Positions 18,691 to 21,823 of a stretch of DNA of 64,000 nucleotides are shown here, piece after piece. A program made the position numbers and the translations under genes. The stretch's first letter is position 1; every line of letters begins with the position of its first letter. Source of the DNA: Oceanispirochaeta sp. (GTDB lineage: Bacteria; Spirochaetota; Spirochaetia; DSM-2461); assembly GCA_963663385.2 (NCBI GenBank), contig CAXXXD010000002.1:1184001-1248000 (forward strand). Reading direction: 5' to 3'. A model generated the notes under the pieces. That model was not told the DNA's origin. It worked only from the letters and a program-made list of their open reading frames with translations, and ran no database searches.

Positions 18691-19819
18691 AAATCTCTTT
18701 AATTGTATCTCCTTCAACCAGACTTGCTGAAAGAACAATTCGTTCAATTTCCTGATCACCCTCTATAACACGATTGAGTTTTTCCATGGCCAGAATGCCC
18801 ATTTCGAATTCATTCTGTTTCAGATGAGTGTAGGCGGATTCCCCTATATACTCCCAGGGCGCATCAAAGCACAACAGGGAAACATCCCCGGGAATCTGAA
18901 GCCCGATTTCCTTTAATACATGGGACGCCAATATTGCCAGGTGATATTCGCAGGCAAAAATCGCTGTTATTCCTCTTTCTGCTGTTAGGTGATCAAGGAG
19001 AAGATTTTTATCTGTTTCAATATTTCCCGGTGTATTTCTTCCCGGCATTGTACTGACAAAATCCAGCAGGAACAGGGAGTCGTCAATTGGCAGATTGTAA
19101 TCCAGAATTGCCGCCTTGACTCCATCAAGCCGATCCTCCAATGCCGAAGTGTTTCGAACCGGAGGAGATAAGTAGAGAATCCGACGGTGTCCTTTATCAA
19201 GGAGATAAGAAGCTCCTTTATATGAGGCTTCCTTATGGTCTGTACCGATAAAGGAAGATTTCAATCCCCTCAGTTCCAAGTCGACAAGAACAAAGGGGAA
19301 GCCCTTCATGGATAATTCCATTATGGCAGGGTTAAAGAACTCATCGTGTTGAGGCTGTATAATAAGGCCCGAAGCCCCAAGGCTGATCAGGTCCCTGATA
19401 GCCTTTTCTTCAAGATCCTGTTTTCCTTTGGTCAGCTTCATGACCAGATAGTAGCCCAGTTTTTCGGCTTCCTTTTCAATGCCTTCCATAATTTTAATCC
19501 CGAAACTGGAGGATATATCGGGCAGTATAAAACCGATAAATTTCTGTTTCTGCCTGAATCTTCTACTGGTGCTCTGAAGGGGGAGGGGATGGCTGCCGGA
19601 AGATCCGGAATAGGAAACAATAGTCCCTTTCCCTCTTATCCGGGTTAAATACCCCTCTTCCACCAGCAGTTCCATAGCTTTACGAACAGTTACTCTGCTC
19701 ACTTCGAACTGCTGGGTAAGCTCCATTTCGGTTTCCACAGTAGATCCATACGTCAGTTCACCGCTTTGTATTCTACTTAAGAGATGATTATAAAGTTTCA
19801 AGTATTTCGGCTCTTCCAT
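18689..19819 (-). CDS. GntR-HTH / LacI-type sensor transcriptional regulator (AraR-like)
   Basis: TEMEL...VSRVTVRKA...RGKGT GntR HTH, then a periplasmic-binding-protein-like domain (IPGDVSLLCFD). Confidence 0.9.
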   Translation of the reverse strand: MEEPKYLKLYNHLLSRIQSGELTYGSTVETEMELTQQFEVSRVTVRKAMELLVEEGYLTRIRGKGTIVSYSGSSGSHPLPLQSTSRRFRQKQKFIGFILPDISSSFGIKIMEGIEKEAEKLGYYLVMKLTKGKQDLEEKAIRDLISLGASGLIIQPQHDEFFNPAIMELSMKGFPFVLVDLELRGLKSSFIGTDHKEASYKGASYLLDKGHRRILYLSPPVRNTSALEDRLDGVKAAILDYNLPIDDSLFLLDFVSTMPGRNTPGNIETDKNLLLDHLTAERGITAIFACEYHLAILASHVLKEIGLQIPGDVSLLCFDAPWEYIGESAYTHLKQNEFEMGILAMEKLNRVIEGDQEIERIVLSASLVEGDTIKEI

Positions 19820-19834
19820 AAGACATTTCCTTAT

Positions 19835-19850
19835 AATGTATCTTACAATT
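19835..19850. promoter_or_regulatory. Putative autoregulatory operator of the AraR-like regulator
   Basis: AATGTATCTTACAATT just upstream of the regulator start. Confidence 0.6.
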
Positions 19851-20015
19851 TATATTAAATGTATCATCCGCTGTATTAGTTTTCAAGCAGTATACGGATT
19901 TTCCATATTTACCAAATCTGAATATAAGTTTTAAATACCTGTAAGAATCCACCTGAATATAAATAACGATATAAAAAGCAGCTCCGGAAGGCAGGAGGAA
20001 TGATAAAAAGTCTTC

Positions 20016-20190
20016 ATAGGCTTGTGGATTGATACAATGTTCTAAACATCGTTTAGAACAGCCAGGTTACTGTTCGCCATTTTTACTGGTCTCCGAGACC
20101 GTACAGGAGAATGAAGAGCCGTGACCGAAACATTCAATGGTCTTCGAGACCGGATAGGAGAATGGAATCAATTCACCGTACAGGCGCTGT
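20016..20190 (+). ncRNA. Predicted bridge/seek RNA of the IS110 element (ends approximate)
   Basis: 10-bp 5' hairpin at 20038-20060, then two similar loop modules around GGTCT-NCG-AGACC hairpins whose flanks match the target and the circle junction. Confidence 0.75.
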
Positions 20191-20212
20191 TTTAGGCAAT
20201 AGGAGCGAAGGT

Positions 20213-21325
20213 ATGAAGATGAGTATCGGAGTGGATCTGCACAAATCCCAGTTAACAGTCTGTTTCCTGAGTGATGATAGAAGCATTTGTGAATCAGGAA
20301 TGTATCCGACCTCTGAGGACGGTTACAGAGCATTTCTTGAGAAAGCAGTGTCCTATACAGAAGAGGGCCTTGATGTTAGGGCTGCAGTGGAATCAACAGG
20401 AAATGCCCGGTTCTTCCGTAACAAGCTATTGCTAGCAGGGATTGAGGTGGTGGTTGTGAATACACTGAAATTCAAAGTTGTAAATGAATCAGTGAAAAAG
20501 ACGGATAAGCATGATGCCAGAACTCTAGCAGAGTTCTTGGAAAAAGATATGCTTCCCGAATCACAGCTTTGTTCTCAGGAGAGTGAGGATATCCGTAGAG
20601 TTCTTAAATCCAGAACTATCCTTGTTAAATCAGTCGTATCTTTGAAGAATCAGGTTCACGGACTGCTTCTAGGGTATGGAATTGAAACAAAAAGAGCTGC
20701 GCTGCAGAGTAAAAAAGAAAGGCAGCGCATCCTCATCGGTCTCGTGGACCATAGGAGTTTCGGAAGCGCTGCCAAAGCGATAGAACCGCTGCTTTCTACG
20801 ATAGATCAGGTTTCGAACCAGGTCAAGCAGTTAGAGAAAGTCCTGCTGGAACTTGTAAAGGAAGATGAGGATGTACAGTTATTGCAGACGATCCCGGGAG
20901 TCGGATTGATAACGGCATCGACTATTAGGGCCTATACGGATGATATCAAGCGGTACGCCAGTGCCAAGAAGTATTCGGCTTATGCCGGTCTTGTACCATG
21001 GGTGCAGAACTCCAATGAGACGATTCATCATGGGCATATAACAAAGAGAGGGGCTGTAGAACTGAGAACGGCATTTGTTCAGTGTGTTATGGGAATGGTT
21101 AGAACTCGGAAAACGACTGGCAATTACCGTATCATGACGAAGTACAGAGCGATGAAGAAGAACAAGGGCAGCGGCACGAGTATTATCGCCTCTGCAAGAA
21201 AGATGAGTACGGTAGTGTACTCCATATTGAAAACCCGTGAACCCTTTGATCCGTTGAAGATGGTTCCGGATGATAAGTACTTGAAGATGCAGGCGGCTGC
21301 ATTCAATGCCGTAAAAACTGGGTAA
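20213..21325 (+). CDS. IS110-family transposase/recombinase
   Basis: RuvC-like DEDD residues GVDLH, VEST, KTDKHDA; IPGVG; GLVPWVQNS serine motif; GHITKRG; RBS AGGAG before ATG 20213. Confidence 0.95.
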   Translation: MKMSIGVDLHKSQLTVCFLSDDRSICESGMYPTSEDGYRAFLEKAVSYTEEGLDVRAAVESTGNARFFRNKLLLAGIEVVVVNTLKFKVVNESVKKTDKHDARTLAEFLEKDMLPESQLCSQESEDIRRVLKSRTILVKSVVSLKNQVHGLLLGYGIETKRAALQSKKERQRILIGLVDHRSFGSAAKAIEPLLSTIDQVSNQVKQLEKVLLELVKEDEDVQLLQTIPGVGLITASTIRAYTDDIKRYASAKKYSAYAGLVPWVQNSNETIHHGHITKRGAVELRTAFVQCVMGMVRTRKTTGNYRIMTKYRAMKKNKGSGTSIIASARKMSTVVYSILKTREPFDPLKMVPDDKYLKMQAAAFNAVKTG

Positions 21326-21385
21326 TCCGGTTCAATTGTAAGCTTGTTAATAGGCTTATGATTGACTTTTTATAGGAGATAAAAA

Positions 21386-21823
21386 ATGGTTTTAAAATGG
21401 TCATACGATCTGAATCAGATAGACTGGAACGAACTGAAGGAACTCTACCGAGTCGCCCCCCTCAGTACAAAAACTGAGGAAAAACTTAAAATCACTTTCA
21501 AAAACAGCATGTTTAAATGCTTTGCCTACGATGGGGACAAACTGATTGCTGCGGGAAGAGCCCTGGCTGACGGGGCATACTGTTCCTATATTTGCGATAT
21601 AGGAGTACATCCCGATTATCAGGGACGGGGCATCGGCAGAAAAACAGTACAGAATCTGATGGATCAGTCCAGAGGGCATAAAAAGATTCTCCTCTATGCC
21701 AATCCGGGAAAAGAGGGGTTCTATGCAAAGCTCGGATTTAAAAAAATGAATACCGCAATGGCTCTTTTTGAAAACCAGGAGGAGATGATTGTTAAAGGAA
21801 TCCTGTCGGGAGAACAGGAATAG
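21386..21823 (+). CDS. GNAT family N-acetyltransferase
   Basis: VHPDYQGRGIG acetyl-CoA motif; FYAKLGF. Confidence 0.9.
   Translation: MVLKWSYDLNQIDWNELKELYRVAPLSTKTEEKLKITFKNSMFKCFAYDGDKLIAAGRALADGAYCSYICDIGVHPDYQGRGIGRKTVQNLMDQSRGHKKILLYANPGKEGFYAKLGFKKMNTAMALFENQEEMIVKGILSGEQE

Follow-up and report, generated by a model that had tools for sequence, protein, structure and literature searches.

How an insertion sequence comes to stand between a Shine-Dalgarno (SD) sequence and the start codon it serves, and to leave the gene behind it with an SD at the same spacing, is the question raised by a locus in Oceanispirochaeta sp. (assembly GCA_963663385.2). The locus lies in a stretch of 64,000 nucleotides (nt) of contig CAXXXD010000002.1 (positions 1,184,001 to 1,248,000 of the forward strand), here called the window, where an IS110-family element directly precedes a gene for a GNAT acetyltransferase. 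A preliminary description, made from the letters of the sequence, held that the element is programmed to insert into SD sequences and to restore them. The analysis reported here makes it probable that this is an active bridge-RNA element of the IS110 family whose target loop reads the translation initiation region. That reading is built on what was observed of the set of copies and their sites, of the structure of the RNA, of the covariation of its guides with both target and donor, and of the pattern across the family.

The source genome contains ten copies of the element, each of 1381 bp and with no more than one mismatch to the first, and the element has therefore been active recently. All ten lie behind a host heptamer of the form xxAGGAG, which is GCAGGAG, with one guide mismatch, in the window copy, AAAGGAG in one other and ACAGGAG in the remaining eight, where it is identical to the 3' arm of the target loop of the RNA (ACAGGAG). 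All ten end in ATAGGAG, and the distance from the GGAG of the right end to an ATG is 6 nt in five copies, 7 nt in three and 8 nt in two. The open reading frames (ORFs) that begin there are co-oriented with the element and intact in 10/10 cases, range from 98 to 689 amino acids and all have Pfam domains (GNAT, H+-pyrophosphatase, URO-D, DUF6588, GDPD, alpha/beta hydrolase, zinc alcohol dehydrogenase, GFO/IDH/MocA oxidoreductase, MCP and an ACP of MdcD type), so that 10/10 copies are found in one orientation at one kind of site. Outside the element, an ATG follows at 5-8 nt at 140 of 1444 ACAGGAG sites (9.7%), and an ATG at that distance opens an ORF of at least 80 amino acids at 87 of them (6.0%); against such a background the heptamer alone would not give ten sites out of ten. 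The preliminary description had regarded ACAGGAG with an A-rich tail as essentially a generic ribosome-binding site (RBS), and this did not survive the count: requiring an A/T-rich tail lifts the RBS-like share to about 10% only. Because such a sequence is so rarely an RBS, the specificity needs an arm that reads the spacer and the ATG.

At the window copy itself the limits had been placed at 19985-21390. An element is indeed present there, and its proper limits are 19998-21378, the left boundary being set by the 5' arm of the donor loop, which covaries with element nt 1-5. The sequence AGGAG occurs twice, as had been described: once on the host side (19993-19997) and once at 21374-21378, where it closes the element. 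With GGCAGGAG as its left flank, the element starts at 19998 with GAATGATAAAAAG; at the other side, ATAAAAA separates the right end ATAGGAG (21372-21378) from the ATG of the GNAT gene at 21386, which stands 7 nt past the element-borne AGGAG. In sequence, then, the right end does rebuild the RBS of this gene at the same spacing. There are no classical terminal inverted repeats and there is no target duplication; the AGGAG on both sides is read as a shared core plus arm rather than as a duplication, given that the donor arm of the RNA contains it too.

The empty site of the window copy would, as reconstructed, consist of GGCAGGAG followed immediately by ATAAAAAATG. Searches for an empty allele found none: the left flank (19600-19997) matched 0/40 related genomes at the DNA level, no orthologue of the GNAT gene was found at E<=1e-20 in 10 congeners, and the contigs of four public sequencing runs contained neither a joint across the element nor a circle junction. 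Of 14 public runs found to contain this sequence, none was of RNA. Another copy precedes a proton-pyrophosphatase gene, of which one 64%-identical orthologue (G007) reads AAAAGGAG-ATTCT-ATG and has no element; it was rejected as an empty allele and shows a native AGGAG-type SD at that gene. Contigs of run X10 carry the element ends (window 19992 and 21383) joined to other flanks, with …AACA before CAGGAG and ATAAAG-ATGG after GGAG, which represent more insertions into such sites, in a related population.

The structure of the RNA was derived from an alignment of 27 left ends, comprising the window element and relatives at 51-79% protein identity. A common fold of four helices was found, made up of a closing stem, the basal stem of the first loop (20065-20070 with 20121-20126) and two distal hairpins. 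Its 26 pairs are formed in 97.3% of alignment cells, against 20-44% when the partners are slid by 1-3 columns, and 12 of the 26 show compensatory changes, a number reached by 0/500 shuffles. The G-U pairs give the RNA the sense of the plus strand, as for the recombinase gene. No Rfam family was found for window positions 19900-21500 at E values up to 1.

Both loops carry arms that follow the DNA they are expected to read, which justifies the word programmed in the preliminary description. The 5' arm of the donor loop changes together with element nt 1-5, the pairs of end and arm being GAATG/CATTC, GCACG/CGTGC, GCATG/CATGC, GTATG/CATAC and GAGTG/CACTC. The 3' arm of the target loop was compared with the left flank in 24 lineages and matched it at position -6 in 23/24 and at -7 in 19/24 (permutation p<1e-4 each), with no significant match in the same lineages at -8 (8/24) or -9 (4/24); since the matches stop at -7, the paired 3' part is the seven bases NN-AGG-AG. 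The 3' extension of the RNA, AAUGA, considered as a handshake guide for the left end, was rejected, being unchanged in lineages with GCACG, GCATG and GTATG ends.

The 5' arm of the target loop is the one that would read the start codon. The preliminary description had noticed bases complementary to the region of the start codon, and the sequence in question, CCATTTTT at 20077-20084, exists and is complementary as stated; it does not adjoin the ACAGGAG guide as had been supposed, and lies in the opposite arm of the loop, past a 5-bp hairpin. The terminal CT of this arm is complementary to the AG core, and its CAT is present in 34 of 37 guide variants. The right flank was assessed at 66 unique insertion sites where it was readable, after 7 of 88 parsed entries had been dropped as false left-end picks and one locus (L140) had been re-parsed by hand. 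An ATG lies 4-9 nt after the right-end GGAG at 57/63 sites with a CAT guide and at 0/3 with another triplet, or, counted by lineage, in 28/34 against 0/3 (Fisher p=0.011). The six CAT exceptions comprise one tandem right end, three sites with ATG at 10-14 nt, one with TTG at 6 nt and one with nothing. How far the next start codon lies from the right end had been put forward as the measure of the idea, and this distance proved consistent with it across copies and homologues, at 10/10 sites in the source genome and 15/15 in the Spirochaetia relative described below as well as in the pooled 57/63.

The pentamer beside CAT covaries, as its reverse complement, with the 5 nt before the ATG, with a score of 61.6 of 130 against 44.8 after shuffling, a score reached by 0/5000 shuffles. 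None of the control models was significant, whether sense (p=0.20), reversed (p=0.96) or unreversed complement (p=0.26). When the arm was instead anchored on the SD, the register +2 to +6 gave p=0.008, and contiguous pairing from the core (+1 to +5) was unsupported (p=0.28); it follows from these tests that the register goes with the ATG and that one base beside the core is usually left out. Two longer versions of the arm were rejected, one extended to the base after the ATG (the G of ATGG with a C before CAT; no family-wide covariation, p=0.87) and one to -6 from the ATG, the base after the pentamer (p=0.74). Within the source genome the pentamer fits the ten occupied sites better (3.2/5) than the 87 free ACAGGAG-N5-8-ATG sites (1.46/5; Mann-Whitney p=2e-5), and among exact-heptamer sites those with a pentamer score of at least 3 number 6 occupied and 17 free, whereas those with a score of 2 or less number 2 occupied and 70 free. 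The family also differs from native genes in spacing and start codon. A background of about 900 native AGGAG RBSs, obtained from the source genome only by a crude ORF-based gene call, has a 6-nt spacing at 27% of all sites and 31% of those at 4-9 nt, and ATG as the start at 81%. A 6-nt spacing was found at 33/57 family sites (p=2e-5 against the 31%) and in 16/28 lineages (p=0.003), and ATG is the start at 57/58 RBS-like family sites (p=7e-5 against the 81%).

In the mechanism proposed, the 3' arm of the target loop (NN-AGG-AG) would pair with the strand opposite the SD heptamer and the 5' arm (CAT plus 5 nt, then CT) with the gene-sense strand, over the ATG, the 5 nt before it and the AG core, with one nucleotide beside the core usually unpaired. 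By analogy with IS621, the complex of recombinase and RNA would pair the circular element with its target, and strand exchange would take place at a dinucleotide core. This core would be the last AG of AGGAG (CT on the other strand), which is the sole position consistent with both arms. Recombination there would leave the SD on one side of the element and the ATG on the other, with the element in every case in the orientation of the gene, and would give a product of the form host NNAGG-AG-left end ... right end ATAGG-AG-spacer-ATG, as matches the junctions observed. The donor right end would bring ATAGG beside the core and the host's own SD would stay before the left end; because the donor has AGG beside the core, the gene would keep an AGGAG at unchanged spacing. 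Restoration of the SD would thus be a consequence of the sequence, and that it is also the reason for that sequence is offered as a proposal only. In the integrated window copy only weak consensus matches to promoters were seen near the RNA or the recombinase gene and no complete promoter, so that transcription of both from the promoter of the host gene is likely, and such transcription would provide a selective reason for co-oriented insertion in 5' untranslated regions (UTRs). In the preliminary description, too, the element came to lie downstream of host promoters, where it would rewire transcription of the gene behind it; continued expression of that gene may be supposed as well.

A number of caveats must be applied to this reading. 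The pentamer matches only about 47% of its positions, so the 5' arm is loose, and a spacing of 4-9 nt would require a flexible bulge undescribed for IS621. The CAT may pair within the RNA with the invariant AUG of AAUGA (pairs 106/142 and 107/141, which never vary), and because of this the conservation of CAT is no proof that it reads DNA. The class without CAT comprises 3 lineages only, of which L095 mismatches the left guide and L129 the right guide. The backgrounds for spacing and start codon come from one genome with a crude gene call, and the metagenome loci were retrieved by the right-end 17-mer, which makes the invariance of the right end there a matter of construction. The pre-insertion site of the window copy is a reconstruction, no empty allele having been found, and the terminator-like hairpin of the right end would argue against free read-through into the host gene.

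Some of these points could be turned into explanations of a different kind. The RNA might specify only xxAGGAG, with an ATG just past every surviving copy since insertions elsewhere break genes and are lost, and those that restore an SD are nearly neutral; of the arms, only that for the heptamer matches near-perfectly, the 5' arm matches about half its positions, and insertion sequences are reported to be generally depleted where they are harmful (Plague 2010, PMC2942039). However, copies recent enough to differ by 0-1 mismatch already stand at RBSs in 10/10 and 15/15 cases, although some 90% of heptamer sites are not RBSs, and selection predicts neither the covariation of pentamer and spacer, nor a better fit of occupied than of free RBSs in the same genome, nor the near absence of GTG and TTG starts, all of which make this explanation very improbable. 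There is equally little to recommend the view that CAT and the A/T-rich 5' arm are kept for folding of the RNA or for contacts with protein, and that A-rich spacers reflect easy melting of DNA by the core. The CA of CAT is predicted to pair with the UG of the invariant AAUGA, and as neither varies the two roles are inseparable there; many guides are also T-rich and many spacers A-rich. Against this, covariation appears only under the antiparallel-complement model and fails for the sense, reversed and unreversed-complement models, the three non-CAT variants retain AAUGA and yet occupy sites without an ATG, and the altered arm of L095 fits its own non-RBS right flank at 7/8 positions with one flank base unpaired.

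The third explanation concerns the replacement SD and leaves more to be said for it, even if it is on the whole unlikely: the AGGAG of the right end may be purely mechanistic, reflecting for instance a preference of the recombinase for CTCCT around the core or a need for homology, with the downstream genes silenced. Donor and target arms are near-identical throughout the family (ATAGGAG and NNAGGAG), as would be conceivable for paralogous loops, and a terminator-like hairpin is present at the right end; on the other side, target arms that are not of SD type exist (ACGGAG, ACAGAG, TGAGAG), so the enzyme tolerates others on the target side, and 10/10 downstream ORFs are intact, a weak point given that the insertions are recent. 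A bridge RNA that reads the SD and the start codon together continues to be the preferred account of the site choice. The features of the window copy on which it is built are collected in Table 1.

Table 1. Features of the IS110-family element and its surroundings in the window (positions are those of the 64,000-nt stretch)
Feature	Position	Strand	Remarks
Host-side SD heptamer GCAGGAG, left target	19991-19997	+	sequence and copy comparison
IS110-family element	19998-21378	+	1381 bp, right-hand AGGAG counted as the element's own; 10 copies with 0-1 mismatches
Putative extended -10 box TG-A-TAAAAA	20001-20009	+	read from sequence
Left subterminal inverted repeat ATAAAAAGTC	20003-20012	+	partner GACTTTTTAT at 21364-21373; read from sequence
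Bridge RNA core	20024-20176	+	closed by long-range stem, 20024-20028 with 20172-20176
Target loop, 5' arm CAT-TTTTA-CT	20078-20087	+	antisense to host spacer and ATG (gene-sense strand)
Target loop, 3' arm ACAGGAG	20103-20109	+	same sense as host SD heptamer
Donor loop, 5' arm CATTC	20131-20135	+	reverse complement of element nt 1-5 (GAATG)
Donor loop, 3' arm ATAGGAG	20154-20160	+	equals element right terminus in 27/27 aligned left ends
DEDD/Ser recombinase (transposase), 370 amino acids	20213-21325	+	PF01548 (DEDD_Tnp_IS110) 8.7e-21, PF02371 4.6e-19
Imperfect right-end hairpin followed by T run, terminator-like	21332-21365	+	sequence folding; hairpin of differing sequence in relatives
Right terminus TTGACTTTTTATAGGAG	21362-21378	+	contains putative -35 box, right inverted repeat, replacement SD
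Host spacer ATAAAAA (21379-21385) and GNAT acetyltransferase gene (ATG 21386)	21379-21823	+	PF00583

The element is composed of a non-coding left end of 215 nt (19998-20212), an ORF of 370 amino acids and a right end of 53 nt (21326-21378), and upstream of the window copy lies a gene for a GntR-type regulator on the opposite strand. Both the start of the left end and the right end are conserved across the family. Joining of the ends in a circle would form a promoter, TTGACT, 17 nt and TG-A-TAAAAA, of good extended -10 type and conserved in the family, and the subterminal repeats ATAAAAAGTC and GACTTTTTAT make up a perfect 10-bp inverted repeat around AGGAGGAATG at the inferred circle junction. 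The hairpin at the right end of relatives has its T run several nucleotides past the stem, unlike a plain terminator. A direct subterminal repeat is also present, as CATAGGCTTGTGGATTGA in the left end (20010-20036) and AATAGGCTTATGATTGA in the right end (21349-21367), and its left-end copy is the 5' strand of the closing stem of the RNA.

The recombinase has the domains expected of the IS110 family, an N-terminal RuvC-like DEDD domain and a C-terminal Tnp domain with the catalytic serine, and it matches the NCBIfam model NF033542 ('IS110 family RNA-guided transposase') with 228 bits against a cut-off of 140. The solved recombinases of IS621 and ISCro4 are distant relatives only (E about 1e-15); the alignment with IS621 (8wt6, E=9e-16) covers mainly the C-terminal domain. 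The catalytic residues are in register with those of IS621, namely the E of AVEST, the two D of KTDKHD and the Ser of QNS; for the first catalytic D, the sequence itself shows GVDLH close to the N-terminus. The gene has its own RBS, AATAGGAG-N7-ATG (20198-20215), which, like the right junction, departs from the guide heptamer ACAGGAG solely at the C, a mismatch that may protect the element from insertion into itself; in the 79%-identical relative the corresponding site reads TTGGAG. Upstream of its start the reading frame stays open as far as an ATG within the bridge RNA (ACAGGAG-A-ATG), which makes a 404-amino-acid ORF (20111-21325, plus strand), and because this ATG is ATT in the same relative it is probably not a start.

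A protein search restricted to one genome per species gave 76 loci. The closest parallel comes from a Spirochaetia metagenome-assembled genome (MAG), OY776510.1, which has 15 copies with a 79%-identical transposase, all 15 with the same right end followed by 5-7 nt and an ATG; its target arm is TTTAGGAG and its left flanks read TTATAGGAG or TTTAGGAG. In five of the 15 insertion sites (L015, L016, L021, L022 and L029) the stretch from about 20 to 90 nt before the left junction contains a shared, conserved motif, in which a second hairpin precedes a palindrome of the type CCTGCATCCATGCAGG; it may represent a 5' leader or regulatory element repeated in that genome. Relatives at 51-75% identity were found on long contigs labelled Spirochaetota and Desulfobacterota, and recombinases of 71-72% identity on a 160-kb Desulfobacterales contig and a 602-kb delta-proteobacterial contig. 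Matches also occurred in bins labelled Gracilibacteria, WWE3 and Dehalococcoidales, where the contigs are only 1.7-2.7 kb long, on which account these assignments may be binning errors. Among plasmids, the Thiospirochaeta perfilievii plasmid NZ_CP035808.1 carries a 74.9%-identical copy with TAAAGGAG on the left and ATAGGAG-ACTATT-ATG on the right; the search otherwise gave generic 'IS110 family' labels and ISLin1 at 30% identity. On that plasmid the ATG 6 nt behind the element opens an unannotated 39-codon Gly/Pro-rich ORF (L216:1827-1946), and the next annotated gene begins about 185 nt beyond it.

A scan of metagenomes for the exact right-end 17-mer gave at least 117 stretches, and of 80 loci taken from them 33 had a recombinase and 26 the left-end RNA. 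A second IS110 clade (L072-L085, L067-L070 and L084), at 32-35% protein identity, is represented on the Lentisphaeria chromosome CP091727.1 and in rumen MAGs. Its ends differ (ATGGTATGATAAAT on the left and TTTATCATAGGAG on the right), and AGGAG ends 12/14 of its left flanks, with an ATG within 10 nt in 13/14 right flanks. The three lineages without CAT or an SD-type arm, L061, L095 and L129, have the target arms TGAGAG, ACGGAG and ACAGAG respectively and no nearby ATG, and look like natural reprogramming away from RBSs, as judged from their arms and flanks. In L095 the left flank mismatches the 3' arm and in L129, conversely, only the left flank fits the guide, patterns that are reminiscent of half-matched insertions.

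Several reduced or rearranged forms were also encountered. Elements of about 190 bp in five metagenome loci (L096, L105, L109, L130 and L154) have no recombinase gene, start with TGTAA(G/A)ATAAAA, which resembles the left end, end with the family's TTGACTTTTTATAGGAG and contain an internal inverted copy, TAAAAAGTCAA; they lie behind xxAGGAG and before a spacer and ATG, and are possibly miniature non-autonomous derivatives moved in trans. At L107 the right end and the donor loop are retained together with a portion of the target loop, and both the recombinase gene and the left terminus are missing; this remnant is a deletion derivative, still placed before an ATG. At L039 (approximately 2599-2680) tandem right ends are found, …GACTTTTTATAGGAG, 12 nt and …TTGACTTTTTATAGGAG, followed by 6 nt and an ATG. 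Repeated insertion at one site seems possible there because the right junction resembles a target, and partial deletion is possible as well.

A wider reading of these observations may be put forward tentatively, namely that a lineage of bridge-RNA insertion sequences, deep and spanning phyla, uses the SD together with the start codon, the universal mark of translation initiation in bacteria, as a portable landing pad. It would be seen at least in Spirochaetota and Desulfobacterota, on long contigs, with the clade at about 33% identity in Lentisphaerota and rumen Clostridia doing likewise. The guide would comprise an anti-start-codon and tolerate a variable unpaired gap by the crossover, and the loops would be opposite in polarity to those of IS621, hence the co-oriented landing in 5' UTRs. 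On this same tentative view the element would borrow the host promoter for its RNA and recombinase and give the gene a replacement SD. Natural bridge RNAs have so far been tied to repeats or single sites, whereas the guide in the window aims at a signal found upstream of hundreds of genes and offered by every bacterium that uses SD sequences, which may explain recombinases of 71-72% identity in different phyla. With ten recent, near-identical copies the targeting rules can be read from one genome, where occupancy rises with the fit to both arms. Engineering of bridge recombinases could profit from the reversed polarity of the arms, from inverted repeats of this length and from the gap beside the core that is apparently tolerated, and the right-end signature can serve annotation by marking real start codons, such as that of the 39-codon ORF on NZ_CP035808.1.

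That IS110 elements can target translation signals is already known from IS900 and IS901, and guidance by bridge RNA is known as well; what appears to be new is the anti-start-codon guide arm, the flexible spacing by the core, the reversed polarity, the co-oriented insertion that restores the SD and the spread across phyla. Both come from Mycobacterium avium, and their insertions fall into the interval from SD to start codon (Plague 2010, PMC2942039, with reference to Doran 1997 and Inglis 2003); the target motif given for IS900 is CATGNNNNNNTCTCCTT (PMC8141618). As cited there, this motif has a CAT-N6-CTCCT layout, which is that of the target of the window family on the strand opposite the gene, and since the published motif runs in the same direction as the element, IS900 and the gene it targets face in opposite directions. 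The host signals have been proposed to serve its antisense ORF, hed, which is without an RBS or start codon of its own. The window element differs in being co-oriented in 10/10 cases, in having no long antisense ORF (the longest on the minus strand inside the element is 88 amino acids) and in supplying AGGAG to the gene. In the literature searched no paper was found that links the preference of IS900 to a bridge RNA or that ties bridge RNA guides to SD or start-codon targeting; the main text of Durrant 2024 (PMC11208160) contains neither 'ribosome' nor 'Shine-Dalgarno', and its supplementary tables of target motifs could already list motifs of the AGGAG type. A mechanistic reading is offered for observations made on IS900 and IS901 from 1997 to 2003. 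If the wider reading above is true, these elements and the lineage in the window would be two orientations of one ancient targeting solution, and the flip in polarity would turn an insertion that uncouples a gene into one that is nearly silent.

Comparison with IS621 and the other bridge-RNA or seekRNA elements of the IS110 family shows both likeness and difference. The likeness extends to a recombinase with a DEDD RuvC-like domain and a Tnp domain with the catalytic serine, to an RNA in a long non-coding left end upstream of the gene with a short right end, and to two loops whose arms match target and donor and covary with them; even the core is the CT of IS621 when the window element is read on the other strand. 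The putative -35 box (right end) and -10 box (left end), which would come together on circle formation, may be a further parallel. The differences begin with the arms, since in both loops of the window element the 5' arm is the antisense of the sequence to the right of the core and the 3' arm reproduces that to the left, whereas in IS621 the 5' arm of each loop is described as the left guide (Durrant 2024, PMC11208160; Hiraizumi 2024, PMC11208158). A reversed arm order is reported for IS1111-type elements, in which the RNA lies downstream of the gene (Siddiquee 2024, PMC11187229). Subterminal inverted repeats are given as 2-3 bp in the IS110 group and 7-17 bp in the IS1111 group (Durrant 2024, PMC11208160), and the 10 bp of the window element depart from the former, the subgroup having been compared by such features of layout. 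Unlike elements of the IS621 type, moreover, the window element targets a functional motif at hundreds of genes rather than a repeat element, and the pairing of its 5' arm is apparently discontinuous, with variable spacing. By every feature tested it is nevertheless an IS110-family bridge-RNA (seekRNA) element, and the exceptions are confined to the layout that distinguishes the subgroups.

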